Source: an uncultured Alphaproteobacteria bacterium (lineage in GTDB: Bacteria > Pseudomonadota > Alphaproteobacteria > Rhizobiales > Rhodomicrobiaceae). From it: a stretch of DNA of 40,000 nt. The notes beneath the pieces were generated by a model. It was not told where the DNA came from, did no database searches, and saw only the letters and a list, made by a program, of their open reading frames with translations. Every line of letters starts with the position of its first letter. Positions within the stretch are counted from its first letter, which is position 1. The translations under genes and the position numbers were made by a program. Location of the stretch: positions 1 through 40,000 of the forward strand of contig CAWCVC010000004.1 in NCBI GenBank assembly GCA_963798805.1, given 5' to 3'. This document shows, one piece after another, positions 3,255 through 40,000 of the stretch.

Positions 3255-3257
3255 CAG

Positions 3258-6760: not shown

Positions 6761-6774
6761 ATTTTTGCCCTTCC

Positions 6775-13539: not shown

Positions 13540-13545
13540 GTCGAA

Positions 13546-13615: not shown

Positions 13616-13681
13616 GATCTTTAGGGACCTTGAGCGCCGTCACGGCTGGCTCCGCCCCCTCTAATTTGCGAAAATGGTAGG

Positions 13682-13809
13682 AACTGGCTAAGAAACTGGG
13701 TAAGGAACTGGCTGAAACTGGGGTGATTCCGAGACCTCAAACGGCTATATTATTGATTTCCCTTCCAACAAGAGACAGCCTGTGACGGAAAAACTGGCAA
13801 AAAAACTGG
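13682..13809 (+). repeat. Phased AACTGG hexamer repeats
   Basis: AACTGG occurs at 13682, 13694, 13706 and 13716 (spacing 12, 12, 10 bp) and again at 13792 and 13804 (spacing 12 bp). All copies are on the same strand. Confidence 0.35.
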
Positions 13810-15048: not shown

Positions 15049-15113
15049 CCGCTCTCACCTTGCCACTTGCATCGGCGAAGATTTTATTCCGCCGTCAAGG
15101 CGCGCGGAGAAAC

Positions 15114-15353: not shown

Positions 15354-15716
15354 GCAACAGTGCCCTCGCAGGTTCTTCTGGGAGGAAGGAACCGCAGCAG
15401 GAGTGGTATCGCGCACTTGCCAAAAGCACCTACCAGAGGACACGTGTCTAGCGACTCATAGCCGAGCGCAAGCCGTATCAAGTTCTACAGTTTTTGTACG
15501 AACAAATTCGCTCAATGCACCAAAACTGCGCCCGCTCTGCCACAGCCGCAAAACGCATAATTGGCCGTGGACGATTGGGCCAGACACCCATTTTCTCGTA
15601 AGCTGCGGATTAGACATCGTGCTAGCGTCCCGCAAAGTCGAGCTTAGCAGCGCTCTCCCTCATAGATTCAGCAGTCTTTGGGCCACCAAAGGCGACAGTT
15701 TTTGGAGAGGTACCGC

Positions 15717-16673
15717 ATGAGTAGCGCAGTTACTGAGGCGGAGAACGATAAGCTCGCTAATGCATTGCTGGTTCCCTGCACAAGCAGGAAATCGGTGCGT
15801 CCTGCACCCGAAGCGTGCGCAGTTTCATTGCCAAAGACTTGTCAACAGGGTGTTGAAACTGCTTGGTTGAGTCGCCTTAGCACCTTACCGGTTCGGCTAC
15901 CTGCGGGAGCGCTTTACGCGGGTCGAGGTTTTCACTTAGCCCGCCAAACTGCCAAAGCGTCTGGCGCCGCCCTCTACGCGGTGTCTGCCGGCTTAGGTCT
16001 GGTTGCAGCTGAACGGATCGTCCCTGCCTACGGCCTTACCATAGATGGACGCAGTCCTGAGAGCTTAACTGGCCGGGTCAGCGGCCTGTTTGATGCAACG
16101 GCTTGGTGGCGGGCTATTAGTTCAGGTCCATTTGCAACACAGTTGAGCGAACTGTTTGGCGGGGAAGTTGGGACACCGGTACTCGTAGCCCTTACCCGAC
16201 CATACGCACGAATGTTAGCTCCGGCGCTCGATGCCATACCAGATGTAGCCGTTGCTTATCTCAGAATTGTTGGCGTCAAGCTCGACGTGCTTCTGCCGCA
16301 GCGCCTGTCATCGCAATTGTTGCCCTACGATGAGCGCCTCGAGACAATTCTGCCAGGAACACGCGCCGACTTTCCCCAACGGGCTATCGCGCATTTTGTC
16401 AAGGAGGTGCTGCGTGCCCACCCAGACGCCGACGCGGCCGAGCACCGCCACTGGGTCGAGATGACGCTCGCTGGACGAAGTGCGCCCCAGCGCCGGCAAC
16501 GCCTGCGGCTTTCCGATAACGAGATTGTGCGGCTCATCGAGCGGCACCTGCCGGAGACAAGTGCGATTGGCCGTCTCCTGCGTATCATTCGGGATGAGGA
16601 GGGCGTCGCGTGTGAGCAGACACGTTTTACGAGGTTGTATCGCGCCACGATCGAACGGAGGGCCGCAGCATGA
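15717..16673 (+). CDS. First gene of the dpd modification operon; DpdC-like candidate (YaaA/DUF328- or DUF6884-like pattern)
   Basis: 318 aa, with RBS GGAGAGG upstream of ATG 15717. LLVPCTSRK...LPAGALYAGRGFHLARQ...LYAVSAGLGLVAAERIVPAYGLTI resembles the xxCxxxK...A..lY.g..f...ilSA.yGLv.p...i.pYd.t pattern. The stop overlaps the next start (ATGA). The assignment rests on position and motif only. Confidence 0.45.
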   Translation: MSSAVTEAENDKLANALLVPCTSRKSVRPAPEACAVSLPKTCQQGVETAWLSRLSTLPVRLPAGALYAGRGFHLARQTAKASGAALYAVSAGLGLVAAERIVPAYGLTIDGRSPESLTGRVSGLFDATAWWRAISSGPFATQLSELFGGEVGTPVLVALTRPYARMLAPALDAIPDVAVAYLRIVGVKLDVLLPQRLSSQLLPYDERLETILPGTRADFPQRAIAHFVKEVLRAHPDADAAEHRHWVEMTLAGRSAPQRRQRLRLSDNEIVRLIERHLPETSAIGRLLRIIRDEEGVACEQTRFTRLYRATIERRAAA

Positions 16674-17812
16674 CCCGCCGAAAGCCTGGCGATGACCCGA
16701 CGCTCGCAGTCCGCGCACTACGGACCCACCAAGCCGACAATGTGGATGTCTACGCCTTCTTCATCCCCGGCGCTGATCTCCTCCGCATTGCCGAGATCAG
16801 CCGCGTCCATCGAGATGCCGAAGGAGCATTGCATGGGTTTCAGCGCAAAGAAATCCGCAATCACGTGCAGGCGATTGTCGAATTCCTCGACCAAGGCCCG
16901 GTGCTCTTCCCGAACGCTATCATTCTTGCAATCTCACCTCGCGCAACCTTTACCTGCAGCCGCGGGAGTAAGCCTGAGGGCGACGTGAGGGCCTCGGAGG
17001 CTGGGACACTGCGCGTCCCGATTCCTCGAGATGGGTCGAAAGCTGCATGGATCGTCGATGGGCAACAGCGTTCGATTGCGCTGGCTCAGGTGCGCAACAA
17101 GAGCTTCCCCGTTCCGGTTGTCGCCTTCGTGTCCGAGGATCTCTCGGTCCACCGCGAACAGTTCATTCTTGTCAACAAGGCCCGCCCACTCCCGCCGCGC
17201 CTTATCAACGAACTCCTCCCAGAGGTCCAAGCGGATCTCCCACGCGACCTGGCGCCAAGGAAGATACCGAGCGAACTCGTCAACCTGCTCAACACGGCGC
17301 TGGACTCGCCATTTCGTGGGCTGATCCGGCGTCCCTCCGATGACAACTCAGACGCCATTGTCATCGACAGTGCGCTAATCAAGGTAATCCGCAGCAGCAT
17401 GAACAGTCCGCTTGGTGCACTTGCGCCCTACAAGGCGTCGCCATCGCGCCCTGCCGACCATGCGGCGATGTACCGCGTGCTCGTCGCATTTTGGGGTGCC
17501 GTGCGCGAAGCCTTTCCAAACGCCTGGGGGCGTCCGCCTACCGAAAGCCGGCTAATGCATTCGGCGGGAATCGAAGCCATGGGCTTTCTGATGGACCGCA
17601 TCATGTCGCGCGCCGCCGGCAACAGCGACCTGCGACGACACGCGATAGAAGCCCTCGCGCGAATCGCGCCGCACTGCCATTGGACGAGTGGACGTTGGCC
17701 CGACCTCGAGCGAGATTGGAACGATATTCAAAATGTCAGCCGGGATATCCGGCTGCTCTCCGACCAGTTGGCGCGCCTCGATCATGCGCATGCCTTCGCA
17801 AAGGTGGCCTGA
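16670..17812 (+). CDS. dpdB: DGQHR-domain (DndB/ParB-like) protein, DpdB family
   Basis: 380 aa. Motifs: AWIVDGQQRSIALAQV (DGQHR-type motif, here DGQQR), QFILVNKARPLP and SRLMHSAGIEAMG. It lies immediately upstream of dpdA with a 1-nt stop/start overlap (TGATG). Confidence 0.8.
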   Translation: MTRRKPGDDPTLAVRALRTHQADNVDVYAFFIPGADLLRIAEISRVHRDAEGALHGFQRKEIRNHVQAIVEFLDQGPVLFPNAIILAISPRATFTCSRGSKPEGDVRASEAGTLRVPIPRDGSKAAWIVDGQQRSIALAQVRNKSFPVPVVAFVSEDLSVHREQFILVNKARPLPPRLINELLPEVQADLPRDLAPRKIPSELVNLLNTALDSPFRGLIRRPSDDNSDAIVIDSALIKVIRSSMNSPLGALAPYKASPSRPADHAAMYRVLVAFWGAVREAFPNAWGRPPTESRLMHSAGIEAMGFLMDRIMSRAAGNSDLRRHAIEALARIAPHCHWTSGRWPDLERDWNDIQNVSRDIRLLSDQLARLDHAHAFAKVA

Positions 17813-19101
17813 TGAAGTTTGTGTTCGCCGACAGTCTCGACTTCGTCGACCCTTGCTACGACTTCGTGGCTGATCGAAATGGCGCGCGGCGTGCTGTTCA
17901 TCGAGATGACCAGTTCCCACACGAGTTTCTCGATGAGGCCCCCTATGACGGTATCCTAGTTTCTCGCGGGATTGTGGGGGACGCCCTTATCCCAGGGAAG
18001 TATACGGAAGCACAACTGATGCGCTTTCGTCGGGAAGGCGCTCGGCGTTTCTTGCGCTATTCCGAGGAACGCTTTCCAGGCAGCATGATGATGGGGGATT
18101 GCGGAGCGTTCACGTATCGGAACATGCCTGAACCTCCATACCGGGCGGAGGATACCGTTGAGTTCTATGCCGATGGGGGCTTCAGCCACGGTTGTTCACC
18201 AGACCATCTGATTTTCGATTTCGATGACGCTGACCAAGAGCGCTCCACGACCGATATACCGAAGGAGACACTGAAACGCTTCGAGATCACGCTTCAAAAT
18301 GCGACAGAATTTTTCCAGGCCGCAAAACGGCTCGGGCAGCGGTTCACTCCTATGGGGGTCATCCAGGGGTGGTCGGCATCCAGCATGGCCTCTGCGGCAG
18401 CGGATCTCGCCCGCATAGGTTACGACTATCTGGCGGTCGGCGGAACGGTTCCGCTCAAGATTGAACAACTCCGCCGGGCGTTGGCTGCGATACGCGAGGC
18501 ACTACCATCGAACGTTTGCTTGCACGTGCTTGGGTTTGGAAAGATCGAGAACCTTGCCGACCTGGAGCAGTACGGCGTTGGGAGTTTTGACACGACGTCA
18601 CCGCTTGTGCGTGCCTTCAAAGACGCTCGCAAGAACTACTGGATGCGGAGCCCTGAGGGTGACCTATCCTACTACACCGCGATCCGCATTCCGCAAGCCA
18701 TCGAGAACAACCGTCTGAAGCATAAGGCGCTCGAAGGGCGGCTCAACCAGGAAGAAATGAAGCTTCTAGAGGACGCCGCTCTCGGCGGCGTACGGCGGTT
18801 GGCACGAGGCGAAGCTGATCTCGACGAGGCGCTTGACGCGGTTATGGCCTATTGGAAGCTACTCAACTGGGAGGATGAAGCCTCTCCGTCTCGCCGCGCC
18901 GAAATCCTGGAACGGCAGCGGCGCTCCTACGCCCGCACGCTCGCCGACCGTCCGTGGGAGGCATGCGACTGCCGCGTATGCCGGGAGGGCGGCATCGAGG
19001 CCCTGATCTTCCGAAGCTCTAACCGAAACAAGCGACGCGGTATGCATAACCTCCATGTCTTCCATCGCCACCTGCGTGATTTCCGGGCGGAGGTCGCATG
19101 A
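17812..19101 (+). CDS. dpdA: DpdA, DNA-guanine transglycosylase (TGT superfamily, TgtA5-like)
   Basis: 429 aa. MKFVFADSLDFVDPCYDF, GDCGAF and a TGT-type Zn site CDCRVC...H (WEACDCRVCREGGIEALIFRSSNRNKRRGMHNLHVF). The gene is flanked by DGQHR genes and followed by queE, queD and queC. Confidence 0.85.
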   Translation: MKFVFADSLDFVDPCYDFVADRNGARRAVHRDDQFPHEFLDEAPYDGILVSRGIVGDALIPGKYTEAQLMRFRREGARRFLRYSEERFPGSMMMGDCGAFTYRNMPEPPYRAEDTVEFYADGGFSHGCSPDHLIFDFDDADQERSTTDIPKETLKRFEITLQNATEFFQAAKRLGQRFTPMGVIQGWSASSMASAAADLARIGYDYLAVGGTVPLKIEQLRRALAAIREALPSNVCLHVLGFGKIENLADLEQYGVGSFDTTSPLVRAFKDARKNYWMRSPEGDLSYYTAIRIPQAIENNRLKHKALEGRLNQEEMKLLEDAALGGVRRLARGEADLDEALDAVMAYWKLLNWEDEASPSRRAEILERQRRSYARTLADRPWEACDCRVCREGGIEALIFRSSNRNKRRGMHNLHVFHRHLRDFRAEVA

Positions 19102-20198
19102 GTCCGACCCGCCTACTTCACTATGACGTAATTGTTCCGCAGCAGAGCGAACGACTGCCGGTCTTCACCTTCGCGGCGAGGGCGACCGATGTCGCGCGCT
19201 TCGCGCGGATTGAGCGGGCTGGCCGCGATGAGGGTGGCATACTGAAGGGCTTCCAGCGCCCGCAAATCGCCGGACATATCCGCGAGATCAGGGACTACCT
19301 CGAAAAGCCGACCGCAATCCTTCCGAATCCCATCGTTGTCGCTTTCACCGGCGCCGCTGTACTTGAGCCGCTGCTGCCGCTCCACGGTGGCAACGGCGGC
19401 AGGTTTGGCAGGCTCACCATCGACGTGGGTGGCGGCCCGCCGGGCTGGATTGTCGATGGCCAGCAGCGTTTCACTGCGCTCAGCGAACTGCGTGGATGCG
19501 CCTTCGAGGTTCTTGTTTCGGGCTTTATTTGTGACAGCCTAGAGGAACTTCAGAAGCAGTTCATTCTGATCAACAACACCCGCCCGCTACCCAAGGCGCT
19601 CGTTTATGAGCTTCTGCCGCAGGTTAGCGACCTGCCACAGCGCTTGTCGAATCGTAGCCAGGCTGCATTGATGACTGAAGCACTCAACTTCCGGCCCGGC
19701 TCATCGCTACGGGGCCTCATCCGACAGCAAACGAACCCGAAAGGGATCATCCGAGACACGGTTCTTCAGCGCGTGCTTATGAACTCCCTAAGCGATGGCG
19801 CACTCCGCCTCCACGCAGACGACAACCGTTTGCTACTCGAGCGTGGGGTTAACCTCATCAGCGAGTTCTTCCACGCCGTAAAACACGTCTTCGAGGAGGA
19901 CTGGGAAGGGAAGACGCCGAAAACATCACGGCTAGTGCACGGCACAGGCATCATCGCGATGGGCTATGTTATGGAAGCGCTGCACATCATGACTGGTGCC
20001 GAGGAACGCGATGCTTTCGCCCGGGGTCTTCGGCTCTTGAAGGGACGAACCGCCTGGAGTTCCGGCGAGTGGGTGTTCGGCGACGAGCGCCGACGCTGGA
20101 ACGGCCTGCAGAACGTACCGTCCGATATCCGGCAGCTATCACTATACCTCGTCGGAGAACTCAAGCGGTCGCTGCCAAAAACTGCCGAGGCAGCGTGA
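19098..20198 (+). CDS. Second DGQHR-domain protein (DpdB paralogue)
   Basis: 366 aa and collinear with the 16670..17812 product. Shared blocks: GWIVDGQQRFTALSEL, QFILINNTRPLP, SRLVHGTGIIAMG, WNGLQNVPSDIRQL. ATGA overlap with the dpdA stop. Confidence 0.8.
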   Translation: MSPTRLLHYDVIVPQQSERLPVFTFAARATDVARFARIERAGRDEGGILKGFQRPQIAGHIREIRDYLEKPTAILPNPIVVAFTGAAVLEPLLPLHGGNGGRFGRLTIDVGGGPPGWIVDGQQRFTALSELRGCAFEVLVSGFICDSLEELQKQFILINNTRPLPKALVYELLPQVSDLPQRLSNRSQAALMTEALNFRPGSSLRGLIRQQTNPKGIIRDTVLQRVLMNSLSDGALRLHADDNRLLLERGVNLISEFFHAVKHVFEEDWEGKTPKTSRLVHGTGIIAMGYVMEALHIMTGAEERDAFARGLRLLKGRTAWSSGEWVFGDERRRWNGLQNVPSDIRQLSLYLVGELKRSLPKTAEAA

Positions 20199-20202
20199 TA
20201 TC

Positions 20203-20838
20203 ATGGCATACTCTGTCAAAGAGATCTTTTACACATTACAGGGTGAGGGCCAGAATGCCGGCCGTCCGGCCGTTTTCTGCCGGTTCGCCGGCTGCAATCT
20301 CTGGTCTGGGCGCGAAACTGACCGCGCGAAGGCTGTTTGCACCTTTTGCGATACTGACTTCGTTGGTGTTAATGGTGAAGGCGGTGGGCGCTTCGGTACT
20401 CCTGGTGAACTTGCCGGCGCCATTGCCGTGTGCTGGCCGGTAACAAGAGATAAGCGCCGCTTTGTCGTGCTCACCGGAGGTGAGCCGTTGCTTCAGGTGG
20501 ACAGCCCGCTTATTGCGGCATTGCACGCCGAAGCGTTCGAGATTGCTATCGAAACGAACGGCACCATCGAGCCGCCACCGGGCATCGATTGGGTATGCGT
20601 CAGCCCCAAGTCTTCAGCACCCCTTGCGCTGAAATGCGGTAACGAACTCAAGTTCGTGTTTCCGCAGGCTGACACTGAGCCCGAGCACTTCGAGGGGTTA
20701 GAGTTCGATCATTTTATGCTCCAGCCCATGGACGGTCCGGCACGCGAGGTGAACACTGCAGCGGCGGTTGCCTACTGTCTTGCCCATCCTCGCTGGCGGC
20801 TTAGTCTTCAAACTCATAAACTGCTTGGAATACGATGA
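20203..20838 (+). CDS. queE: 7-carboxy-7-deazaguanine synthase QueE (radical SAM)
   Basis: EIFYTLQGEGQNAGRPAVFCRFAGCNLWSGRETDRAKAVCTFCDTDF (CX14CX2C-type cluster motif), TGGEPLLQ, LSLQTHK. Confidence 0.9.
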   Translation: MAYSVKEIFYTLQGEGQNAGRPAVFCRFAGCNLWSGRETDRAKAVCTFCDTDFVGVNGEGGGRFGTPGELAGAIAVCWPVTRDKRRFVVLTGGEPLLQVDSPLIAALHAEAFEIAIETNGTIEPPPGIDWVCVSPKSSAPLALKCGNELKFVFPQADTEPEHFEGLEFDHFMLQPMDGPAREVNTAAAVAYCLAHPRWRLSLQTHKLLGIR

Positions 20839-21188
20839 AACTTACTCAGGCATTTTCGTTCGAGGCCGCGCATCGCCTGCCGAACGTACCCGCAATCCAT
20901 CGCTGCCATCGGATGCACGGTCACTCTTATCGGGTGGAGCTTAGGATCGAGGGGCCGGTAAACCCAGAGACCGGGTTCGTCCTCGACTTCTTCGACATTG
21001 AGGCAGCCGTTGGTCCGTTACTGGAGCAACTGGACCACCACTGCCTCAACGAGGTTGATGGACTTGAGAACCCGACCGCCGAGAACATAGCGGTATGGAT
21101 TTGGACCCAAATTAAGCCAATTCTGCCGGAAACGGCGGCAGTCGTAGTTTACGAAACTCCCAATTGTTGGGCTGAATACGAAGGCTGA
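20835..21188 (+). CDS. queD: 6-carboxy-5,6,7,8-tetrahydropterin synthase QueD
   Basis: 117 aa. [24 protein letters not shown]...[13 protein letters not shown] overlap with the queE stop. Confidence 0.9.
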
Positions 21189-21205
21189 AGTTGAGGGCGC
21201 AGAGC

Positions 21206-21910
21206 ATGAACGGCAAGAATGCGATGGTTCTTTTTTCAGGCGGTCAGGATTCGACAACCTGCTTAGCATGGGCACTCGACCGGTTTGACCACGTGGAGAC
21301 CATCGGATTTGATTACAGGCAGCGCCACCGCGTCGAACTTGATATGAGACCGTCCGTCCTCGACGGTCTAAGACGCAAGTTTCCAATCTGGGCAAGCAAA
21401 CTCGGCGAGGACCACCTGATTGACATGGCGGTGCTCAGCCAAGTGAGCGAAACCTCGCTTACACGTGGTGGCGAGATCGCGATGCAGGCGAATGGGCTGC
21501 CGAACACCTTCGTACCAGGGCGCAACCTGCTGTTCCTAGTCTTTGCGGGCGCGATTGCCTATCGACGCGGGGCCAAACACCTCGTTACCGGCGTGTGTGA
21601 AACAGATTACTCTGGCTACCCTGACTGTCGCGATGACACAATGAAGGCAATGCAACTCGCCCTCAATCTAGGCATGGAGACGCGCTTCACCGTTCACACA
21701 CCGCTGATGTGGATCGATAAAGCAGAGACTTGGCAGCTTGCTCGAGACCTCGGCGGTGACACTCTTGTCAATCTCATCCGCGAGGCGACTCACACCTGTT
21801 ACAATGGTGACCGAACTCACTGTCATGAATGGGGATTTGGTTGCGGGGCATGCCCGGCGTGTGAACTGCGCGCTCAGGGATGGGAACGCTTCCGAACGTC
21901 GATAAGTTGA
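21206..21910 (+). CDS. queC: 7-cyano-7-deazaguanine (preQ0) synthase QueC
   Basis: PP-loop [12 protein letters not shown] and C-terminal Zn cluster [25 protein letters not shown] 21206 with GAGGG 8 nt upstream is preferred over the TTG at 21191. Confidence 0.9.
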
Positions 21911-21938
21911 GGCCCGCGCCCTGAGTAGCCAAATTGCG

Positions 21939-24096
21939 CTAGCTCTCTCCGTCGCGCAAGTGGGCTTCGATGGCGCGCAAGATGCTCGAGAACCCGCGGC
22001 CCTGGGCGTAGAGCAAAGGCCGATTGGCTCGATGGTCTCGGATAAAGTCGGTTGCTGCGTGCTTGGCGGACTGCCAAGTCAGCACGAAAATGTCAGCATT
22101 CTCGGCAAGGGCTCGCAACCTTGCGCTTCCGACCTGGTCGGCGTTGCATTCAACGACCGCTGACGGCGCGATCTCCTCAATCGCCGCCTTAGCTTGTCTG
22201 CTCGACGTTTCAGTAAGTGTGTAGATAGCGATTCGCTTGCTAGCGAGCCGATCTGAATAGTGATCGCTGGGCGTCACGCTGGCGGGCAGGCCAAAGCTTG
22301 CGAACTCCCAGCCGAGTTCAACGCTCAAGCGGGATAAGGCACTGCGCTGTAGGCTGCTTAGCCTGCCATAGATTGGCGCCACCTTGGCCAGAGCAGCATG
22401 AAGAAAAGTTTCGCGTACGTCTGGAGACGACGCCCCAAAGCTAAGCAGGATTTCGATGATCTCGAGCAGCCAGTAGATCATCTCAACGCCGAAGCCTCGG
22501 CCGGCAAGCTCTTCGACATCCGAGATCAGGTCGCGATAGCTTTTCTCGTCCAATCCGGAGGCGAGCATTGCGTAGATTAGAAGTTGACTGGATTCATAAA
22601 TCCCGCGTCCTCGCGCCGAACTGAGGGCAAGCAAAGTCAGCAAATGCGAGTAAACTGGGACCACCGCGCTCCTTGGGAAAAGCGGGTCGCGTCGGAGCCA
22701 AGCCGTTATGAACGGAAGCGCATGCATCGTGCGCTCCGCCGCAAGCTCGAGACTGTTGCGCTCTGTCCAATGCGGCGACGAACCGCTGCACGACCACTGG
22801 GTCATCGAGTGCTTCACCGACTGGCCACTCGTCCATACCCTGGCGTGCGATATCTAGCGCATTGGAAAACGCAGGATCGCCGGCTTGCTCCAACCATTCC
22901 AACCAGTCGCGGGGCACACGCCCAGCCGGCAGTTCCTGCTGCAGTGCTCGCAGCAGCGTGCGAAAAGGCTCTGCCTCTCGGAGCCGACCGAAGTCGGTGG
23001 CATCCAGCTTCTCAAGGTTCGCGATCGCGCTGGCGACCGAGTCGAGACTTGACGCGGTGTCGAACTCCGTCAGAGCGTCGCGCGCTTCATCGATGGGGTT
23101 CGGTTGTACTTCGCGGATGCGGTCAACGGCCTCGAAATTAGAAGGCGCATCCACGACCTTGGTGGCGAGCCATCCAATCTGATCGTCACGGGTTGAAAGG
23201 GCATCGGTGAGATCGCGACGGCTCGGCGCAACCCAGGCTTCAAGTGCAAGGATCCGCCAGCCCCCCTGCATAAGCGTGACCGGTGCGGGCATGCCGAGCA
23301 TCGGGTGGGCAAGCGGTCTGACATGCTCTTCATAAGCTGCCCGCGTCGCATTCGCGTCACCCGAATCGAAGGCTGCTGCCAGGTGACCGCGATAAAGAGC
23401 CTCGAACAGGAGTGCGACAATCGCTGGCGGCTTACGAGCCTGGCAGAGGCTCGCAAATCCAGGCAGGTTGAGGATCGTCGGCCACTCATCGAACGCCGCG
23501 AGCAGTTGAACGTTGAGGAATTTGAGGTTGAGTGCGTCGAGCCGAAGTTCGGAGCGAAGCCGCTTCAGTAGGATCATCGCAGGCTCGCGCGCGCCGACGT
23601 TCAGATAATCTTGAAATTCAGCGAGCATCCAACTAGTCGGCTCTGGCGCGCGGCGCTGCAAAGTCGGCGCACGAGCAAGCGTACCGCGCAAGCACTCCAG
23701 GGCACGGAGTGCGGCGACCGTCCGCTTGGCTTCACTAGGCAGCCGCAAGACGGTTGCGGTGACAGGCCCAGCCTCTCGCACCAGGTCTGCAATTGGATCT
23801 TCTGCTGGTAAATTCACGGGCCGCCCGTCAAAGGAGGTGATCGTCGGTCCGGCAAATGCGACGAGTACTGGCGCGAGCCGTCGCCATTGGGCCGCAGTTG
23901 GGGCGGCCACATAGACATTAACCTCCCCCGTGTCTCGGACGGATGGGATCAGGGCGCCTGGAAAACCCGCGTCGACAACGGTCGCCAAGAGCGCCCGGCA
24001 CAGATCGGTGGCATCATGCGGAAGTCGATCGTAAGCGGCGGCGCCATGCAACCGGTCGCGAACGGCGATCGAGAGCTCTGGATCGGCTGCTATCAT
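21939..24096 (-). pseudogene. dpdD: DpdD-like protein (last gene of the - strand operon); one frameshift
   Basis: ORF 22594..24114 (N-terminal part) and ORF 21939..22817 (C-terminal part) overlap by 224 nt in different frames. Sense appears to switch near 22745-22760: ...FVAALDRAQQS then LELAAERTMHALPFITAWL. The C-terminus IAIYTLTE...ADIFVLTWQSAKHAATDFI...PLLYAQGRGFSSILRAI is DUF2325-like. ATG 24096 is preferred because GGAGGAG lies 8 nt upstream and it forms an ATGA overlap with the dpdK stop. The name is assigned by elimination and position. Confidence 0.55.
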
Positions 24097-24620
24097 CTCA
24101 GCAACTCCTCCCATTGCAACTCAAGCTGAATGCTTTGCTCTGCGATCGCGGCAGGATCAGTCCGAAGGACCAGATGCTCTCCGTTTACGGAAATGCCGTT
24201 CAAGGTCAGGTTCATGGAGCCGCTAAGGAAATAATCGGCACCAAGCAGGCCTTTGGCATGGAAGCTCTTTTCGATCGTCCATTTGAGGAGATCACCATGG
24301 CGCGCCTTAAGCGCCTTCAACCGAGCGACGAAGTAGTCGTTGTGACCATCCTCGCGAATAATGAGTCGAATGGCAGCGCCTCGAATAAGCAGTGCACGGA
24401 GGACGTGTGACAGGCGAATGGAAGCGGCCGGCCAATCCGGCTCCAGCGCCGCAAACTGGCGCGCCGAGTTGTCGAGGATCTCAATGTCCGAGATCCAGGC
24501 GAAGAACAGCCACAATTTGGGGCTAGGGCAGATCAACTCGGCTGCCAATAGGGTCTGGAGGAGATCGCGGACAGCCCGTGACTGCGCCGGTCCGTGGAGG
24601 TCGCGAGAGGGCGAAGCCAT
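24093..24620 (-). CDS. dpdK: PLD/HKD-family nuclease-like protein, DpdK-like
   Basis: 175 aa from ATG 24620, which overlaps the upstream stop (TGATG). HKD-type motif FHAKGLLGADYFLSGSMNLTLNG. The longer listed ORF (to 24833) would overlap dpdJ by more than 200 nt. Confidence 0.75.
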   Translation of the reverse strand: MASPSRDLHGPAQSRAVRDLLQTLLAAELICPSPKLWLFFAWISDIEILDNSARQFAALEPDWPAASIRLSHVLRALLIRGAAIRLIIREDGHNDYFVARLKALKARHGDLLKWTIEKSFHAKGLLGADYFLSGSMNLTLNGISVNGEHLVLRTDPAAIAEQSIQLELQWEELLR

Positions 24621-29896: not shown

Positions 29897-32800
29897 GGGC
29901 GGCCTCCTCAATCTCCAACATCATAGCCCCTAAATCCGCCTCGATCCGCTCGAGGGCGCGGTCAATCCTTTCGATACTTGCGGCCGTTGCCGCGTGCTGA
30001 GCACCATGGTCGGCACTAAAAGCACTTAGATTTCGGTCGACGGCATCCAGGAATGTTGTTGCCAATTGCCTGAGTTCGTCGCCAGCGATAACCGCAGCCC
30101 GCCGTCCTCGGCCGAAGTGTGGCAATGCCGAGAGCGGATCCTCTACCTTGGAGATTGCCCGCGCAGCCGCGATCGCATCGTCAAACTGAACAGACTGGAA
30201 GCGTTCCAGAGCCTCGGCAAGCGGCCTCGACGTTCCACCGACTGCAATACCAGCCTGGTCTGCTGCCTCGTGTGCCTTTGACAGAGTGGTGATGATTGTC
30301 GCACGAGTCGCCCCCGCGCCGAACGCTTCTTCCAGGTCGGACAGCCACTGACGCCTAGCATTCCACTCAGCGACCGCCCCAGTCTCAAGCGCTGCCTGCA
30401 CCTCCTTGTAGAGTTTTGAAAGTGCCAGGAACTCCGAATGCCTTTCATCACCGGATGGCGTCAGCGTCAGCCGCCACTTCGCATGCCGAAACGCACGGAC
30501 GCCCGCGATGAAGCGGTCGGGGTTGAGCATCGCGCCTACGCGCCCGCCTTTCATGCTCGAAATTTGCGCGCGCGCAATCGCGCTGAGCTTGTCACGATAC
30601 TTCAGGAGCTTGTCATAAATGGCCTTGAGTTCGGGTGCACTCGCCTGACTTTCGAGCGGCCAAGCGCTGAAAGCGCCGTCGATCATTTCGGCAATTCGCG
30701 CTTCCGGCTTGATCTTGTTCCCAATTGCGGCGCCGATGTACAGCAACTGCAGGGCGGCCATGGACTGAGACCATTCGGGGGAGGGGCCGCACAGCGCTCG
30801 AAGCTGTCTCTCGACCTCCTTCGCCCAGGCATCTACGCAATCGAGAAAGGCCGTAAGCATGCGATCGCCCCCCTCGAAATCCCAGCGGAAGCCCGCTTTA
30901 CTCGCTCGGATCAGGCCTTGAAGCGCGGCACCGGTCCGAATTGGATCGGCATGTGGGCCGGGTATGCGGAGCTGAACCGGTAGATGGGTTTGGATTTGCG
31001 TTGTCTGACGATCAAAACTGACGCTGTTCGTCTGGAACGCTTTGCCCGTCTTGCCAACGAACGAACTACGCTCGAGCCCCAGCATGTCCCAATCGATCGC
31101 ATCCGCGACGGCGATGAAGGTCAAGTTCCGCAAAGTTGTCGCAACCGTTTGATCGAGACCGCTGCCCTTGATCCAAGCCTCGATCGCAACGTCTTCACGA
31201 CTAGCTGCCTTCGCTTTCGGCTGAGGAACTCGCTCGTCGGCAAGTTCTGTATTACCTTCCGCCGCAGTACCGACACCGGGTATCTCCGGGATCGAGAAAG
31301 TATCCCGCAATTCGGCCGGTAGATTCTCGATCTTGCCCGACCCGTCATAGAGCTCGAGCGCAGCAATCCACCGTTCCTCTGCCTGTGGATTGGCGCTCTT
31401 GAGCCGATTGCGAGCGGCGAGGTTGAGGGTGCGCGGCGGGTTGGGAGCGCGAGGGGCTTCAAGCTTCTCGAGAAGACGATAGGGCGGAAATTCCCCGGCC
31501 TGGATCGAGCTCGCATAGGTGTCGAGTACCTCGACCAGCACGCTGTTTTGAAGAATTCGCGGATTGAGGCCCTCCGGCATTGCAAGGTCCGCTCAACTCG
31601 CCGCATTCCAAAGCGCTGTCCGAGTGAAGGGGTAGAGGCCGTAACCATCGATGGCCCCGAACGTCTGATGACATCCGCTGTTGTGAGGGCAGCTTTTGCA
31701 CTTTGACGGCGCATGCTCCCCAGGTTCCGCTGTATCGCTCCACTGCTCGATCCGCTCGAGTCCCAACCGAGCGGCATTCAGGTAACGCGAGGCGAACGTG
31801 CTCAAGGAGGTGGCAGTCACGCGACTGCCGTCTGCCCGTCCCGCAGATCGGTCCATATCGATGATGTGGGTCGTCCGCATATAAGCGGTTTCGGCGACAC
31901 TCTCGAAGAAACCCGTGGTGACAGCTATCGCCGAGCGGATCTTGCATTGATCGTCGTCTCCATGTGCCGTAATCGCCTGGAGAAGTGCGCGGTCGATGCC
32001 CTGGAGGCGTGCAAACTCCTCAACCAGAAGAACCAACTCCTTGCGTTGACTCTTCAGATGCGCCCGTAACCGCGCCATCAGTTCCTCGACGCGGTCACCC
32101 GAGAAGCTCAATGTGCGCGCCACCGCCTTGTCGAGGTTGCGGTTGATGATCTGGACCGCAAGTGGTTGGGACACGCCCGGCTCAAGCTCGATGACGTGCA
32201 TCGCATCGCGGGCATGTTTCGATGCATGGACGAAATCAAAACCACCCAGCGGCAAGTCTTGCTCGACGAACTGGCGGCGTCTATCGGGCCGATCCTTGGC
32301 ATTGGAAGCCGCGAAGATATGGTCAACGATGTCGGCAATGATCGTGCCATCGCGCAGGAAATGCTCCTGCCGCATATGAGGATCTTGAAATAGGTGCGGC
32401 AGTTGCTTGACTAGCTCTGCCTCAAGCTCATCTGCTTCTTCGGGAACATACTCCTCACGGATCGCGAATGCGAGGTCATTGAGAAGCTGTTGTTTCTGCC
32501 CGTCGCGAGTAGCCGTACTCTCACCGGCACGATTGAGAATGTCGAGAAAGCCTTGTTGCTCGGAAGCCGGCAACTGATGGATGATCATCTTGACGATGGT
32601 GCGAAGGCTTGTCCCCGACTTCTTGACGACTAGCACCATACGCTTCTCGTCGGGCCTCATGTTGAGGCGCATCCAGTGGACAAGGTGTGACTTGCCAGAA
32701 CCCGTCGAGCCGAGGATCGCAGCGAGAACGTGCGGCCGATCCTCACGCAGAAAATCTTCGAGGAATACAGCTGGCGTCATCTGTTCGTAAGATGCCCCAC

Positions 32801-32951
32801 TGATCTCCTGGAAGGATTTCCCCATCGGGGCGCTGACCTGGAGCGCCCAGTCGCTGTGAACTGCCCGGAATAAACTATCAGGGATATGTTCAGCGAATGG
32901 ATTGATGACGCGGCGGGCTTCTTTCGGGTCCCAGCAGAGATATTTGCGCAT
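29886..32951 (-). pseudogene. dpdH: P-loop NTPase of about 1020 aa, DpdH-like; split by an in-frame TGA
   Basis: ORFs 31593..32951 (Walker A GSTGSGKSH; LVLLVEEF Walker-B-like) and 29886..31580 share one frame. They are separated by TGA 31593-31595 plus 4 codons: ...TALWNAAS * ADLA MPEGLNP... No obvious SD precedes ATG 31580. The alternative is two naturally separate genes. Confidence 0.55.
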
Positions 32952-33872
32952 TATACCGGAGCCTTTCTAACTATATGAGTTATGCGCTCAGTTCTCACCC
33001 CGAAGTCGAGTAGCAACGGGGGCGCATCGGCCCGGCTGATCATTTCGATCTGCTGGCGATCGGCGAGCCGCTGTAGCGCGATGCTGGTCGCAGGTGAAAG
33101 ACGGCGTTCACTCTGGTAAGGTGACGCCCCGTTCATTGCCTCGATTTCCTGCCGCGCCGACCCACCTTCGAGCACCGGGAAGATGCCCGCGAGTTTGCTC
33201 ATGAAGGCGTCGCCGGACAGTTCGGTGACCGAGGAGAATATTGTCGGGAGCGCTGAGGCAATGGCGCCGCAAGGATCCGGAACCGCGCGACGGGCGTCCT
33301 TACCGTCGTCCTGATCGTGCGTTCCGAGCAGGGTCGCAAATTCGAGGTAACGGGCCCAATAGAGAAAGTTTTGGTAGCGGTTGAGGTTGGTCAACTCGGT
33401 GCGGTCATACTCCTCGCCCAAGGTGGAACGCAGCAAGTTCTGCGGTGGGGTCGCAAAACCGATCGGCTCTAAGGGGCTAAGCGTCAGGAACCAAGCCAAA
33501 GCAAGCATGAAGCCTGCTTGCTGGCTCTCTGCTGCACGCGCTGGGTCGAAGAGAGTTCTGAGAAGGTGGGCGCGAAACCGCTCCTCATATGCCGTTTTTT
33601 CGGCCGCCACCCTCGCGTGCTTCGCCCGGGACCCTGAGCCTGTCGTCAATCTCTTCGATGAGCCCTAGCTTCTTCGCCTCGGCCAACGTGTTGGTGAACA
33701 ATGTTGTCGCCGTGTCGCTATCCTCGTCGCTGCCCCCCCGGGAGCGGAGCGACGGCGGCGTAGACCAACCCTCCAGACGCTCCCGCACTACACCGTTTGG
33801 ATTGTCGACAAGCGACACATAAAGGCTGTAAAGGCGACTGGGAACAGCCTGCGCGGTGGTGATAATGCTCAT
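32951..33872 (-). pseudogene. dpdG: DpdG-like protein (assigned by position); one frameshift
   Basis: ORF 33585..33872 (MSIITTAQAVPSRLYSLYVSL...) and ORF 32951..33649 overlap in different frames. Removing one A from the A6 run (T6 at 33595-33600 on the + strand) gives a continuous ...PGEAREGGGRKTAYEERFRAHLL... of about 306 aa. ATGA overlap with the dpdF stop; TAATG overlap with the dpdH start. Confidence 0.55.
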
Positions 33873-35246
33873 TCGGCAACCTTTGCGTGGAGCTCATGGA
33901 GGGTCAGAATCCTGCTAGCAAACACGTCGCGTAAGCGACGCCCGTCGGGTGCGAGATAGTCTTTGGGAGCGATGAAGATACGCGGCGTCTCAGGTCTAGG
34001 CGCAAGGTTCACGGGCTCCAGCACAAACTTTCCTGTTACCATCACAATTTCGGGCCCTTTGGGCTGGCGGGAGTAGACAAGCGCCGATACTTTGCTCACG
34101 AAGAATGGGACTCTCTCTGCGAATTCCAGCACGCGCTTCATATCGAAGGGCTGCTCGCCCAGGAGCAGCAGCTTGGACACGCCGGCTTGCTGCAGACGTC
34201 GGAAGCTCTCCGCTAGACGACGCGAGGCGTTCCGAGGCAGGTCGTCCGGATCATAGGTGACCAGAAGACGGCCGTCGTGGCCGAGTAGGCGAACCAGGGA
34301 AGGTGTGAGCGGTGGGTGCCAAGGCGAGCGCGGCTCGCTGACGGATACGGGCTTGTGAAGTTGACCGGGGTTCGCCCGGCAGCGACTGCACCGACTGCAC
34401 AGACGCCCGAGTCGATTCGCGCCGTAGAGATCCTCGAAAACATTGGCCGGGCAGCAATCGTCTCGCAAATAGCGCCGCATCAGCGCCAGGTTGCGCTCAT
34501 TTGCCCTCCACACTTCCTCGCGGACCGGCCCGAGGCGTTCCTTCCAGACCACCTCGTCGAGATGCCCTTCGTCAAGGATTTCGATTTCAAGCCAATCGCC
34601 TATTTTTTCGATCCGGGGATATGGTGTGCCGAGCATCCGGATGAGTCCAGCGCGAGCCATCAGCGCCAGAGTTCGTAGATTCCAATCGGTGTTCGCCTCA
34701 CCGAACATATCGATATCCTTCTCGGCATTGCCGGGGCGCCCATCGATACGCAGCGCCCAGCGGCCCGTGTCGAGTTTCCATTTCTTATTGAACATGGCCG
34801 TCCAGCGGTGTAGGCCTCGGTCGATTCCTATCACTTTTTGCTGGTTGATCTGTTCGGCCAAGCCAAAGTCGCGCTCAGTCGGGACGATAAGCGATAGCGA
34901 GACGCAACCATCGCGACCGCCGCGCCCTACCTCCTGGTAGAAGCGATCGAGTGTCTCGGGCACGCAGGCATGAATAACTGTGCGCGCGTGAGGGTAGTCG
35001 ATCCCGAGCCCAAAGGCCGAAGTGCCAACCACGACATCGAGCTGGCCTTGACGCCAGGAGTCCACGACTCGCTCGCGTTCCTGGCGATCTGACCTGCCAT
35101 GGAGCTTGGCTATCCGCCTGAAGCCCGCGCGGAGAAGGCGGCGATGCCAGGCATCAGCATCTTCGACCTGTGTCACATAGAGAACTGTGGGGCGTGGTGT
35201 GTGGTGCAGCGCCTCGAGTACCCGCGCGATACGTTCGTTCTCATTA

Positions 35247-36292
35247 GAGCGCCGGACCTAAAAGCGGAATCAGGATTCCACTTTTAAGCGAACTGTGATT
35301 CACCATGTCAGGAGGTGGATCATGGGCAAGAGCTATTCCTCGGATTTGCGGGAGCGTGTTGCCGCTTTTGTCGGGGCGGGGCATTCGCGCCGCGCGGCTT
35401 CGCGGCATTTCGGTGTCAGCGGCAGCTTCTCGATCAAGCTGATGCAGCGTGTGAGGGCCTTGGGTTCGATCCTGCCTGGGCAGCAGGGCCGGCCACCGGG
35501 CAAAGGCAAGCTTGCTGCCCATGAGGCCTTTCTTATCGAGGCGGTCGAAGCAAAGCCTGACATGACCATGCCGGAGTTGAGCGCAAGGCTGCAAGCCGAG
35601 CGTGGTGTATGCGCTGAGCCGGCGAGTTTGTCGCGCTTTCTCTGCCGGCGCGGCTTTACTTATAAAAAAAACGCTGATGGCGTCGGAATGCGCACGCGCC
35701 GATGTCAAGGCTGAACGCCGTCTCTGGATCGATCGCCGCCAGCCCAGAATGTGTCTCGAGCCGCATCGTCTCGTCTTTATCGATGAGACCTCTGTCAACA
35801 CGAAGATGGTGAGGCTTCGAGGCCGCTCTCCTTGTGGTGAGCGGCTGCGCGCCGATGCACCCTTCGGCCATTGGGGAACCCAAACCTTTATCGCTGGCCT
35901 TCGCTGCAATGAGCTGACAGCGCCGTGGGTGATCGACAAGGCGATCGATCGGGCATCCTTCGATCTTTGGGTCGAAACCCAACTCGCTCCGACCCTGTCG
36001 CCGGGCGATGTGGTCATTCTCGACAACCTCGCCGTCCACAAGAGCGCCAAAGCCGCCGAATGCCTGAAGCGCCGAGGCGCCTGGTTCCTCTTCTTGCCGC
36101 CCTACTCTCCAGACCTCAATCCGATCGAGATGGCCTTCGCCAAGCTCAAGGCACATCTGCGCGCCGCCGCCGCCAGGACCTTCGACGCCCTATGGCGAGC
36201 CATTGGCGATATCTGCGACCTGTTCAGCCCCGAAGAATGTTGGAATTATCTGCAAGCTGCCGGATATGCGTCCGATTAAAAGTCCGATGCTC
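35247..36292 (+). mobile_element. IS630-family insertion sequence (1046 bp) with TA target duplication
   Basis: TA at 35245-35246 and TA at 36293-36294 flank the element. Imperfect terminal inverted repeats are GAGCGCCGGACCTAAAAGCGGA and GAGCATCGGACTTTTAATCGGA (reverse complement of the right end), with 16 of the first 25 positions matching. The transposase genes lie inside. Confidence 0.85.
35322..36279 (+). CDS. IS630-family transposase encoded in two frames bridged at an A8 tract
   Basis: Frame A starts at ATG 35322 (RBS AGGAGG): [23 protein letters not shown]. Frame B runs to 36279: [12 protein letters not shown]...[12 protein letters not shown]...DNLAVHKS...[19 protein letters not shown] (DDE signature region of IS630/Tc1-like transposases). 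The junction is at A8, 35664-35671. Confidence 0.8.
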
Positions 36293-37462
36293 TAGGTGTC
36301 GCCGGAGCGATCCAATAATCCGGCTCAGGACGAAGCTGCACAGCTGCTATGCTTTCGAAAGGACCATCGGTCCCGAATAGAGCGCGGAGGGTCTCGAGTG
36401 AGGTTTCAGTCAGTGTTGCTGAGAGAAGCAAGGTGCGCATTCGCTGATCGGGCCGTGCGGCGGCGATCAGTTCACGCCGAAGGCCACTCAGTTCCTGAAA
36501 CTCGGTGCGGAAGCCAGTTCCCCATTGGTCAACGAGATGCGCTTCGTCGATCACCAGCGCGCGAAGATGACCATGCTCCGCCGCAGTTCGTAGCGACGAC
36601 CGCAAGCGGCCGCAGGCGGCTTCAGGCGACGCAAAGCAAAGGCCAAGCGTTCCATCTGCGATGCGCTCGGCGATGACGGCATTCTGAACGTCATCGCCGC
36701 CCCGGAAAGCAAGCGGCCGCTCGAGTCCACAAACCCGAACGGCTTCCTGCTCGTGATTTATGCCGAGGGCGACCGTCGGAATAATAACGAGTGCGATGCC
36801 CCGTGCCTCCGGCTGCGCGCCCACAAAACCGACGCTTTGGACAAGCTGGAAGACCATGCTCTTGCCCTCTCCCGTCGGCAGCGCGATGACGAGGGTGCCA
36901 CCGGCGGGCGTGCACAGCGCTGCCCGAACCGCGGCTCGCTGTCCCGGGCTGCGATATGCTGTGCGGTTGATGGACTTGAGACAGGGATCGCCGGTTGTTC
37001 CAGGGCCAGTAAAATCTCGCAATACGTGCTCGGAAGTTGCATAGCCATCGACCCCCTCACTCGCTTGCCCCAACCACTCCGGCGACCACGGCTGGGCGGT
37101 GATCGAGAGGCTATCGCCTGAACGGTTTGCTCGCAGTCCCACCCGCTCCCAGTGGCTAAAAGCGGTCAGCCGAGGGTGACGAAGGCGAATCGTTGGAGAA
37201 ACGGCATAGGATCGCCGAGCATGCTCGTGCCTGAGCGCTTGCCTTAATAGGACGGCAAGGTCGAGCGGGCTCGCGCGCGATGGTTGTTCTGCAAGCGCGG
37301 CACGGAGTCGATCGATGGCAGGTGAACTCGCAGACCAAGCGTCTGCCGCTTCCGTGTCGCCCAGGAGCGCCCGCATCGCTTCGAACGCCCCATGCCCTTC
37401 AAGCTCAGTCATTGGAGCCCCGCTGAGGCCGCTGCCTTGTAACCACGAACGCGCCCATAGCT

Positions 37463-40000
37463 TCAAGCCGCACCGAGGGCGTAGCGAGAACTCGGCAGGA
37501 TCATTTCTAGGAGAGCGATGTCCGAGCGCGCCATGGCATCACCAGCCGACTGGCGTCGCAGTAGCCTATTCCGGCGTCGTTCGAGATCGGCACGTGCTGA
37601 TGCCACGGCCGACGTGATTCTCGTTTGCGGCTCGGGGCGCGTGCGCACTATCTCACGCGCTTTGTCGCGAATGGCGCGGCACCGTTCGCTGAATGACGTG
37701 AGGTCAATGACTTGTTCCAGAAGCTGAAGCCGGCTAGAGAGATTGGTGTCGCGACCGCCATCCTCGACGCTCCGATAAGGGCGCCCGAGCACATCCAAAA
37801 GCTTAGGGTCTGTCACTTCCTCGCCGTTGATATCGATCACTAGCTGATGGCCTTGGGAGGGAAGATAAACCTGTGCACGCCTGAATGCTGCTAACTCCTC
37901 ACGTGTGGGCGCGAGCAAATCGGATAATTGAATGTCGGGCTCGATGATAAAGGAGAGCCGAAAACCGATCCAAAGATCGGCGACAAATTCGGGAGCTACT
38001 CGCCAGGTCGCGAAGGCTGTGCCTCGATCGTCCCAACGCGTGAACCGTTCGATGATATCGACGAGCGGCGTGCCGGGCCGCAGCAATGTCACGGCAGGAT
38101 CACGCGTGGCGATCCTCCGGCGCCAAGTAAGGCGCTCATTGCCATCGACTTCGAACTCCATCAGCCAAGGCTCGCGCGGCACAAGCGCGCCTTGGCTGAT
38201 GCTTAACTTGAAGGGGTCTTCATTGGGTCGGGCAGATGAGAGCCTTTTGAACTGAAGTACACCGATCAACCATTGGTGTACGTCACGTTCGAGCTGCGGC
38301 TCATCCGATTCGGCATCTTCGAGCAAGTTAATGAAATCTTCAACTGGCTCTTCGGCGAGCGCAATCTGATCGAGTGCAAATTGCTCGTCCTGAGACCGGC
38401 GCTCTTCCCGAATCCGCTCCCGCATCTCGTTGGTGAACGCCGCCAACGCGTCGGGGCCGTTCAACAGCAGCGTCCGGAACGCTTCGGCTTCGAAACCCTC
38501 CAGCAAAAACTGCACATCACTGATGGACTGATTGAAAATTAGAAGTCCGCGCGCGAGAAAATCGAACCACGCGGCCCATGGATTTCCGTCTTCATCGGAT
38601 GGTAGCAGAATGCGGTGGCGGATCAGGTTCTGGCGCCTCCCAAAGCGATCGAGCCTACCAATTCGTTGCTCAAGTCGTGCTGCGGAAAATGGAAGATCGA
38701 GATGGACGATCGCGTCGGCGCAAGCAAGATTGAGGCCCTCTTCACCGCATCGGTCGGTGACTAGCAGACTTGGCAGATCCGACGCGACGAAATTTGCCAC
38801 TGCGTGGGGATCTTCGTTCTCTCTAGCGTAGGTAAGGAGAAAGGCAGGCGCGTCGTCGATATGCTCCTTCAGCGCCTCGAAGAATGCGGTCGCGACGCCG
38901 GTCGAAGAAGAGAAGACAACGATCTTCGGATGTGGCCCTTCTTTACGGAGAAGTCTTGATGAGCCGTTTCGTGCTGTCAACCATCAGCTCGATTCGGGGC
39001 TCAGCCTCCCGCTCGTCGGGATTGGGCGTCAGGCTTGCGAGGAACTCGGGTTCATCGTCAAAGAGAACCTCTGTCTGCCTAAGTTCTCGGGCAAGATGGC
39101 TTGGTGAGACGCTAAGCGCTGATAGAAAGAGCGCATAGCGAGCGGCAAGACGATTGAGCAACTTTTCGTCACTGCCACCTGCCTCGATGGCCGAATAGCG
39201 CCAATCTTCCAACACTGCGAACAGCCTATGTGTTTCATGCGGATTAGTCTCGAATTTGACGTGTGAAAGGTTTGGCTCATTCTCGACCTTTGGCCCGCGC
39301 GGCATGAACTCCCAGCCCGCGGCGTCGGCGCGGCGCGAGCGGATTAGCCGCTGATGGATACGATAGGTATCGGCGATATGTTCCTTAAGCGTTGTACAAA
39401 GTGAAGGGACAGCTTCCGGAGCCTCGCGAGTAGCTGCCGCGAGGCATGGGGCCAACTCCGAGACAATGGGATCATCAGGAAAGAGGCGTTGCAATTCGGC
39501 GCCGCGTTGGCGAAGTACGAGCCCAGGATTGTCCGGATCGAGGCTTAACAGGATACGACCGAACTCACGCCGTTGCTCAAGCTTCGCACGAAAGCTTTCT
39601 ACATCATCGAGCGAGTGAGTCAGTGGATCGAGCAGATTGAGAAGCGCCAGGAATCGAGCCTCGTCGCCGAGCGCCGGGGTTGCTGAGAGAAGCAGCAGCA
39701 CAGGAGCCTGGGCAGCCAGTTCACGCAACCTGATGGCTGACGCGGCAAGCGGACCGCCGTCTATCCCGACGACGTGATGAGCTTCGTCCACAACGAGGAT
39801 ATCAGGAACCTGTGTTACCTGGCCCAAGTCGGCATGGCTAACATATTCCAAGCGCTTGCCGAACTGGTCGAGCCGGAGCTTCGTTTCCAATTCAGTGCGC
39901 CACTGCTGCCGCAGATGCGACGGCACAGCGATCAGCACTGCTGTGTCTGGTTTGTCGATTAGGTGCTGACGAACAATAAGCCCGGCCTCGATCGTTTTTC
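37463..40000 (-). pseudogene. dpdE: SNF2-family helicase, DpdE-like; 5' end outside window; one frameshift
   Basis: The upstream frame is open to base 40000: KTIEAGLIVRQHL... (motif I tail), ILVVDEAHHV (DEAH), LLLSATP. ORF 38943..39938 ends ...KRLIKTSP*. ORF 37463..38980 continues in another frame with LLRKEGPHPKIVVFSS...TDRCGEEGLNL...LEQRIGRLDRFGR (SNF2 motifs IV-VI). The 38-nt overlap places the shift near 38945-38965. Confidence 0.65.

Follow-up and report, generated by a model that had tools for sequence, protein, structure and literature searches.

A Probable Salmonella Montevideo-Type Dpd Island with an IS630-Family Insertion in dpdF and Apparent Basecalling Errors at GANTC Sites

Introduction

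The DNA analyzed here, i.e., positions 1 to 40,000 of contig CAWCVC010000004.1 from GenBank assembly GCA_963798805.1 (the whole of this 40-kb stretch is referred to as the window), raises the question of whether the genes that it carries for a Dpd-type system, which places 7-deazaguanines in DNA and restricts unmodified DNA, form a working set or the remains of one. In a first-pass annotation made from the sequence alone, the long proteins of the - strand operon had been taken as single open reading frames (ORFs). This does not hold for the raw sequence, where six of the eight - strand genes (dpdE, dpdF, dpdG, dpdH, dpdJ, and dpdD) are interrupted; seven point lesions had been passed over. All seven genes of the + strand read intact, and no insertion or deletion (indel) was found in the modification genes.

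We conclude that the region is very probably a canonical Dpd restriction-modification island of the Salmonella enterica serovar Montevideo type lying beside a tyrosine integrase, that most of the operon breaks are probably basecalling or polishing errors, and that the insertion of an IS630-family insertion sequence (IS) in dpdF (dpdF::IS630) is genuine. The architecture presents no new element, the Dpd system being already described; the S. Montevideo system comprises dpdA-K (Thiaville 2016, via PMC5699537 and PMC10164549).

Gene Content of the Island

Genes were identified using PADLOC and the curated equivalog models of NCBIfam, and domains using Pfam. The modification half on the + strand starts with dpdC (15717..16673), the ATG of which is exactly the base at which the first-pass annotation had placed the start of the island; the protein matched the DpdC model of PADLOC over its full length (E 1.6e-76), scored 29.1 bits against Pfam DUF6884, just below the cut-off of 30, and gave no match in the NCBIfam model search. 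It is followed by a first copy of dpdB (DGQHR/ParB-like; 16670..17812; NF041060, 463.2 bits, cut-off 300; PADLOC E 1.9e-136), by dpdA for the DNA-guanine transglycosylase (17812..19101; NF041059, 526.5 bits, cut-off 200), and by a second copy of dpdB (19098..20198; NF041060, 375.6 bits, cut-off 300). Three genes of the preQ0 (7-cyano-7-deazaguanine) pathway complete the row, namely queE of the Cx14CxxC type (20203..20838; TIGR04508, 344.1 bits, cut-off 240), queD (20835..21188; TIGR03367, 101.4 bits, cut-off 89.25), and queC (21191..21910; TIGR00364, 207.6 bits, cut-off 150.3). The NCBIfam equivalog models thus confirmed the predicted presence of DpdB-type DGQHR genes and of queE, queD, and queC beside dpdA. 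PADLOC also named QueC, DpdA, and both DpdB, and gave no match for queE and queD. Since the two DpdB copies, which flank dpdA, are 35% identical to each other in a pairwise comparison, they are read as old paralogs and not as a recent duplication.

The queC, queD, and queE genes and a gene of the tRNA-guanine transglycosylase (TGT) superfamily are also parts of tRNA queuosine biosynthesis, and the cluster might in principle be a queuosine or tRNA-modification cluster that merely lies beside unrelated helicases. We give this explanation almost no credence. DpdA passed the cut-off of its own equivalog model and failed those of the tRNA enzymes by a wide margin (Tgt, 37.9 bits, cut-off 306.75; TgtA, 32 bits, cut-off 350), scores by which the queuosine reading was refuted and the earlier assignment of the TGT homolog to the DpdA type was upheld. 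Moreover, queF, queA, and queG are all absent, and all neighboring genes are members of Dpd families. DpdA also matched the crystal structure of the S. Montevideo enzyme (7UI4; E 2.5e-91): its D96 and D260 align with the catalytic Asp95 and Asp256, and its D131 with the base-binding Asp130. The CxCxxC...H zinc motif is present, and Gln replaces His181. As the first-pass annotation had noted, there is no folE in the 40-kb window, so the first step toward preQ0, that of GTP cyclohydrolase, is presumably supplied by the host.

For the restriction half a comparator was available in the ENA metagenome contig ERZ25039539:contig_39642, which was found via exact-sequence look-up of DpdB and DpdI and aligns to window positions 12229-40000 (blastn, 99.62% identity over 12229-27814, and 99.82% and 99.92% over the rest). 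DpdE (1021 aa), DpdG (306 aa), DpdJ (1520 aa), DpdK (175 aa), and DpdD (718 aa) are intact in the comparator. The bit scores given below for DpdE, DpdG, DpdJ, and DpdD are those of the intact comparator copies, and those for DpdF and DpdH were obtained with the rejoined and the repaired protein, respectively.

The - strand operon begins past base 40000, extends to 21939, and converges on queC, 28 bp from its end; a terminator scan of this convergent 28-bp queC-dpdD junction was empty. PADLOC named DpdE, DpdF, DpdG, DpdH, DpdJ, DpdK, and DpdD on this strand. The first gene is dpdE for an SNF2-family helicase (37405..40000; 1021-aa comparator copy, 915.2 bits, cut-off 500), of which the N-terminal roughly 157 aa lie past the window end; the island does continue past base 40000, as had been predicted, only by about 0.47 kb of dpdE as judged from the comparator contig. 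Next come dpdF for a RecQ-like DEAH helicase (33869..37412; 831 aa without the IS; rejoined, 809.3 bits, cut-off 550), dpdG (32951..33872; 306 aa in the comparator; 153 bits, cut-off 80), and dpdH for a 1021-aa P-loop protein (29886..32951; repaired, 539.8 bits, cut-off 450). A gene for a 236-aa protein (29186..29896) follows dpdH and precedes dpdJ, the place that dpdI also takes in Roseomonas indoligenes; the size and position of this gene fit dpdI, its match to NF041066 is weak (46.1 bits, cut-off 150), and PADLOC gave no match for it. The operon ends with dpdJ for a 1520-aa DEVH helicase (24620..29183; comparator copy, 1753 bits, cut-off 800), dpdK for a small protein of the PLD/HKD nuclease family (24093..24620; NF041068, 205.7 bits, cut-off 100; Pfam PLDc_2), and dpdD (21939..24114; comparator copy, 534 bits, cut-off 300). 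DpdJ is a member of the YprA family of helicases, which is shared with DISARM and Druantia, and pairs with the PLD nuclease DpdK (bioRxiv 10.1101/2025.09.15.676423).

The Dpd gene set is therefore complete in dpdA, dpdB, and dpdC and in dpdD, E, F, G, H, J, and K, with a weak match for dpdI. The first-pass annotation was borne out by the ORF list, PADLOC, and the NCBIfam models in its gene content, order, and orientation. Its equation of the first seven - strand genes with dpdE-K agrees with the names assigned by the models, dpdI being placed by position, and with the frame breaks bridged the products scored above the curated cut-offs, DpdI again excepted. The eighth gene is present as well and proved to be dpdD, making the operon dpdE-K plus dpdD; the DUF2325-like tail ascribed to its product was not recovered by Pfam.

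Breaks in the Restriction Operon

The proteins that had been described as an SNF2 helicase, a RecQ-like DEAH helicase, a P-loop protein of about 1020 aa, and a DEVH helicase of about 1520 aa are rightly recognizable as DpdE, DpdF, DpdH, and DpdJ, but none of the four is continuous in the raw sequence. The frame of dpdE changes twice, each time through a +1 insertion at a GANTC site (38951 and 37489). A 1046-bp IS630-family element that is missing from the first-pass annotation separates DpdF into two fragments, which match positions 3-378 and 403-856 of the DpdF profile. An in-frame TGA at 31593-31595 divides dpdH into 452 and 564 aa, and dpdJ falls into two different frames of 1008 and 552 aa at an added A (26181), where GACTC is read as GAACTC. 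In dpdG the frame is broken at 33595 by the expansion of an A5 run to A6, which leaves a raw ORF of 232 aa instead of about 300. In dpdD it is broken by an A added outside any GANTC site, at 22752; the resulting products of 506 and 292 aa match positions 29-445 and 445-708 of the DpdD profile. After removal of the six single-base insertions, the change of 31595 from A to G, and excision of the IS, eight uninterrupted frames of the expected length are obtained, all of which score above the curated cut-offs.

The comparator has breaks of its own. An insertion at its position 5373 (window 34523, extra T) splits the dpdF call into 622 and 203 aa, and another at 8302 (window 31594, a T added within GAGTC) splits the dpdH call into 497 and 474 aa. 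Protein databases built from this public contig hence hold truncated Dpd proteins.

Over window positions 15453-40000 the two assemblies differ by 17 substitutions, 15 of which are G/A or C/T differences affecting the first or the fifth base of a GANTC motif. The motif is absent from the comparator in 11 of these 15 cases and from the window in the other four (23811, 24118, 27420, and 33195). The remaining two substitutions form one adjacent GA/AG swap (15601-15602); over about 24 kb no other substitution difference lies outside GANTC. There are about 59 GANTC sites in these 24.6 kb, which gives such a concentration a binomial probability of about 2e-33; about a third of the GANTC sites are discordant between the assemblies. 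The discrepancies follow the pattern [G/A]ANTC and GANT[C/T] in both assemblies, and the insertions at 26181 (dpdJ) and at 37489 and 38951 (dpdE) turn GANTC into GAANTC or GANTTC.

At the premature dpdH stop, GAGTT is found in the window and GAGTTC in the comparator; a GAGTC there would read AGT CGA GCG, with Arg being the residue of the R. indoligenes DpdH at that position. We infer that the TGA is a miscalled CGA (Arg) within a GAGTC site. A true CGA to TGA nonsense mutation was considered and dropped, as the change is the same C to T at GANTC position 5 that is seen at 33195 and the comparator carries an insertion at the same place.

GANTC is the site at which CcrM of Alphaproteobacteria forms N6-methyladenine (m6A), and both the flanking element and the nearest Dpd relatives of the island are alphaproteobacterial. 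Methylation-linked errors in nanopore data take the form of purine/purine or pyrimidine/pyrimidine ambiguity beside methylated bases, with a minimal motif of RA/TY (PMC11610573). In long-read assemblies of agrobacteria GANTC was named explicitly as an error motif (PMC12710330), and in Brucella two errors were tied to it (PMC12392509). The discrepancies observed here share with the published ones both the R/R or Y/Y miscalls directly 5' of the methylated A and the GANTC motif in Alphaproteobacteria; they differ in a rate higher than that obtained with recent methylation-aware models and in that some of them are 1-nt insertions. Because the GANTC pattern occurs in both directions and the island shows a single further substitution difference, most of the lesions are probably long-read basecalling or polishing artifacts beside CcrM-methylated adenines and not mutations. 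Given that the breaks agree with nanopore errors already described next to m6A, the operon, dpdF::IS630 excepted, is probably intact.

Several observations weigh against this interpretation. It was drawn from the disagreement of two assemblies, there is no ccrM gene in the window, and an alphaproteobacterial host is suggested by the homologs on plasmids and integrative and conjugative elements. The window insertions at 22752 (dpdD) and 14459 (Fic gene) and the comparator insertion in dpdF (at window 34523) lie outside both GANTC sites and homopolymers, and every indel in the window is an insertion. The freedom of the modification genes from indels would also fit a selective decay of the restriction half; the chance of finding zero indels in 6.2 kb at the observed rate is roughly 0.1-0.2, however, and this freedom is hence uninformative.

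A genuinely decaying restriction operon, in which the frameshifts and the stop are real and an orphan 7-deazaguanine modification module is left behind, was weighed as an alternative. The contrast between interrupted - strand and intact + strand genes speaks for it, as do the off-GANTC position of the insertions at 22752 and 14459, a real IS630 insertion, given which the operon could already be under relaxed selection, and the existence of dpd islands without restriction genes (PMC12235509). We nevertheless consider decay unlikely. Five of the seven point lesions, among them 26181, 37489, 38951, and the TGA in dpdH, fall on GANTC and that at 33595 is in a homopolymer, reciprocal "mutations" are present in the comparator at eleven other GANTC sites together with its own breaks in dpdF and dpdH, and several real indels are implausible where only one substitution difference (the GA/AG swap) in about 24 kb lies off GANTC. 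Selective pseudogenization of the restriction half was dropped as an explanation for the same two reasons, i.e., the differences follow GANTC and the comparator is broken elsewhere.

If the breaks are taken as errors, their cause might also be sought in the Dpd system itself, the G/A miscalls at GANTC being a nanopore footprint of 2'-deoxy-7-cyano-7-deazaguanosine (dPreQ0) or the corresponding 7-amido nucleoside (dADG) at that guanine and not of CcrM m6A. The miscalled base is indeed a guanine and not the adenine, the island is present in both assemblies, and some phage DpdA have GA-containing target motifs (PMC10484667). In addition, about 59 GANTC sites in 24.6 kb amount to about 2.4 guanines per 1000 nt, which is comparable in order of magnitude to the value published for Dpd modification in bacteria, roughly 1 per 1000 nt (PMC10164549). 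Such a footprint is nonetheless highly improbable: GANTC is exactly the alphaproteobacterial CcrM motif, errors at GANTC are on record for the agrobacterial and Brucella assemblies cited above, m6A errors are generally recognized by ambiguity of the purine 5' of the methylated A (RA/TY; PMC11610573), and the partial motif of the S. Montevideo DpdA is CxGCxG and not GANTC (PMC10164549). Were it true, the Dpd target motif of this lineage would overlap the cell-cycle methylation site.

With m6A-linked miscalls as the favored cause, two practical consequences follow. A naive ORF annotation would list most of the restriction operon as pseudogenes and a naive comparison of the two assemblies would count about 20 "mutations", and methylation-linked basecalling errors of this kind can be recognized from the GANTC context alone.

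As a side observation on base composition, GANTC occurs 74 times in the whole window, compared to about 146 times expected from the base composition, a deficit that may be partly due to miscalled sites. TCGA is over-represented in the window (359 vs. about 144).

IS630 Insertion in dpdF

The one lesion that is clearly real in our reading is the IS630-family element of 1046 bp in dpdF (35247..36292, + strand), which was recognized by its HTH_Tnp_IS630 and DDE_3 domains, inverted repeats at its ends that match imperfectly (16/24), and a duplicated TA target (35245-46 and 36293-94). Its HTH-encoding orfA starts at 35322 and its DDE_3-encoding orfB ends at 36279, the two overlapping around an A8 run at about 35664-35671; the Pfam match was weak for PF01710 and clear for PF13358 (E 4.2e-31). 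The element shares 75-77% identity with transposase genes that are annotated as IS630-family on plasmids of Bosea and Sinorhizobium. Since the target TA is duplicated and removal of the IS with one TA restores exactly the empty site of the comparator, dpdF::IS630 is a genuine transposition.

The IS sits between the helicase motifs of dpdF and should inactivate DpdF. With its transposase antisense to the operon, it may also have a polar effect on dpdG through dpdD. The likeliest phenotype of the strain, as far as it can be predicted from the genes, is modified DNA with Dpd restriction weakened or absent. Together with the empty-site allele of the comparator, dpdF::IS630 makes up a natural isogenic pair for asking whether DpdF is needed in Dpd restriction.

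Proposed Function

In the characterized S. Montevideo system preQ0 is made by QueD, QueE, and QueC, DpdA together with the ATPase DpdB swaps guanine in DNA for preQ0, and DpdC converts the product to dADG; DpdD-K restrict unmodified DNA, their individual roles being not yet known (PMC10164549, PMC5699537). By analogy, QueD, QueE, and QueC of the present island would make preQ0 from host-supplied dihydroneopterin triphosphate, DpdA and DpdB would exchange specific guanines in DNA for it, DpdC would hydrolyze the nitrile of preQ0-DNA to give dADG, and DpdD-K would restrict DNA without the mark. In this copy the modification half would be active and restriction compromised by dpdF::IS630.

Comparison with Known dpd Systems

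The island has in common with the S. Montevideo system the full set of dpdA, dpdB, and dpdC plus dpdD-K (with dpdI assigned by position), a modification block combined with the restriction order E-F-G-H-I-J-K, the catalytic aspartates and zinc motif of DpdA, and the context of a mobile island. It differs by having two diverged dpdB flanking dpdA, by the location of queE, queD, and queC inside the island, by the position of dpdD at the end of the restriction operon, and by the convergence of this operon on the modification block, as well as by the Gln in place of His181 in DpdA, the IS630 in dpdF, and a DpdI-position protein scoring below the model cut-off.

Contig32 of Roseomonas indoligenes SG15 was the only match from a genome-contig scan, with 57% identity in DpdJ. 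It has the same dpdE-F-G-H-I-J-K-D order, there intact, followed by dpdA-dpdB-queE-queC; it lacks the IS630 insertion and differs further in its queC-dpdD interval (17122-19187), where two additional proteins are encoded. One is a strongly diverged DGQHR protein (396 aa) that scored far below the DpdB cut-off, the other a 296-aa protein with no family match, and neither has a counterpart at this position in the window. The plasmid of Caulobacter sp. S6 (NZ_CP073079) carries, according to its RefSeq annotation, an identical block of a hypothetical gene at the position of dpdC, dpdB, dpdA, dpdB, queE, queD, and queC, and its DpdA is 75% identical to that of the window. In this plasmid, however, other helicase and AAA genes are paired with the block, and the IS630 insertion is missing. 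The comparator ERZ25039539:contig_39642 has nearly the same island base for base and is set apart by the empty TA site in dpdF, a diverged integrase/Fic block, and its own breaks in dpdF and dpdH.

In a survey of 37,198 dpd islands complete operons were the commonest state (PMC12235509). The same survey listed 801 additional copies of dpdB, preQ0 genes in about 27% of the islands, and Arm-type integrase domains and transposases in >20% (PMC12235509). An extra dpdB, preQ0 genes within the island, and an adjacent integrase are thus all documented for dpd islands (PMC12235509), and the window adds one instance to a family catalogued in tens of thousands of genomes.

Flanks and Mobile Context

The gene for a tyrosine integrase (12379..13539, + strand; Pfam Arm-DNA-bind_3, Phage_int_M, and Phage_integrase) occupies the island's left edge and is also present in the comparator. 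It is followed by a Fic-domain gene (13782..15048, + strand; Pfam) that is frameshifted by the added C at 14459 and intact in the comparator (421 aa). Over window positions 12271-14801, which comprise the integrase and Fic genes, the two assemblies differ by 47 single-nucleotide polymorphisms (SNPs), one of them in GANTC, and these SNPs look like real strain divergence. Because there are 47 SNPs in this block and one non-GANTC substitution difference in the dpd island, the dpd cargo and the integration module have different histories, brought about by recombination or by a recent transfer of the cargo.

Positions 1-7000 of the window form the backbone of an alphaproteobacterial conjugative element, with genes for a strawberry-notch helicase (187-2586), a DUF7146-Toprim protein, a YAcAr/DUF2493 protein (4514-5482), and a DUF736 protein (6422-6760), and share 70-74% identity with plasmids from, among others, Methylocystis, Pseudosulfitobacter, and Ketogulonicigenium. 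The DUF7146-Toprim gene (3258-4242) apparently lies in two overlapping frames (3258-3782 and 3298-4242); no GANTC-type context was found around the frame change at 3540-3600. The adjoining region 7900-12121 has a low GC content (45-55% vs. about 60% elsewhere) and short ORFs, among them a partial match to GCS2 (8296-8913) and a weak match to Lon_C/ChlI (9715-10227).

No tRNA genes were detected in the window by ARAGORN. A second Arm-type tyrosine integrase is encoded at 10841-12121 on the - strand, back to back with the integrase of the dpd island, and this arrangement suggests tandem islands at one site. On the other side, positions 1-300 of the comparator, about 0.7 kb beyond base 40000 and upstream of dpdE, contain what resembles, by eye, part of an IS5-type transposase gene riddled with stops; should it be one, the right edge of the island would lie just outside the window.

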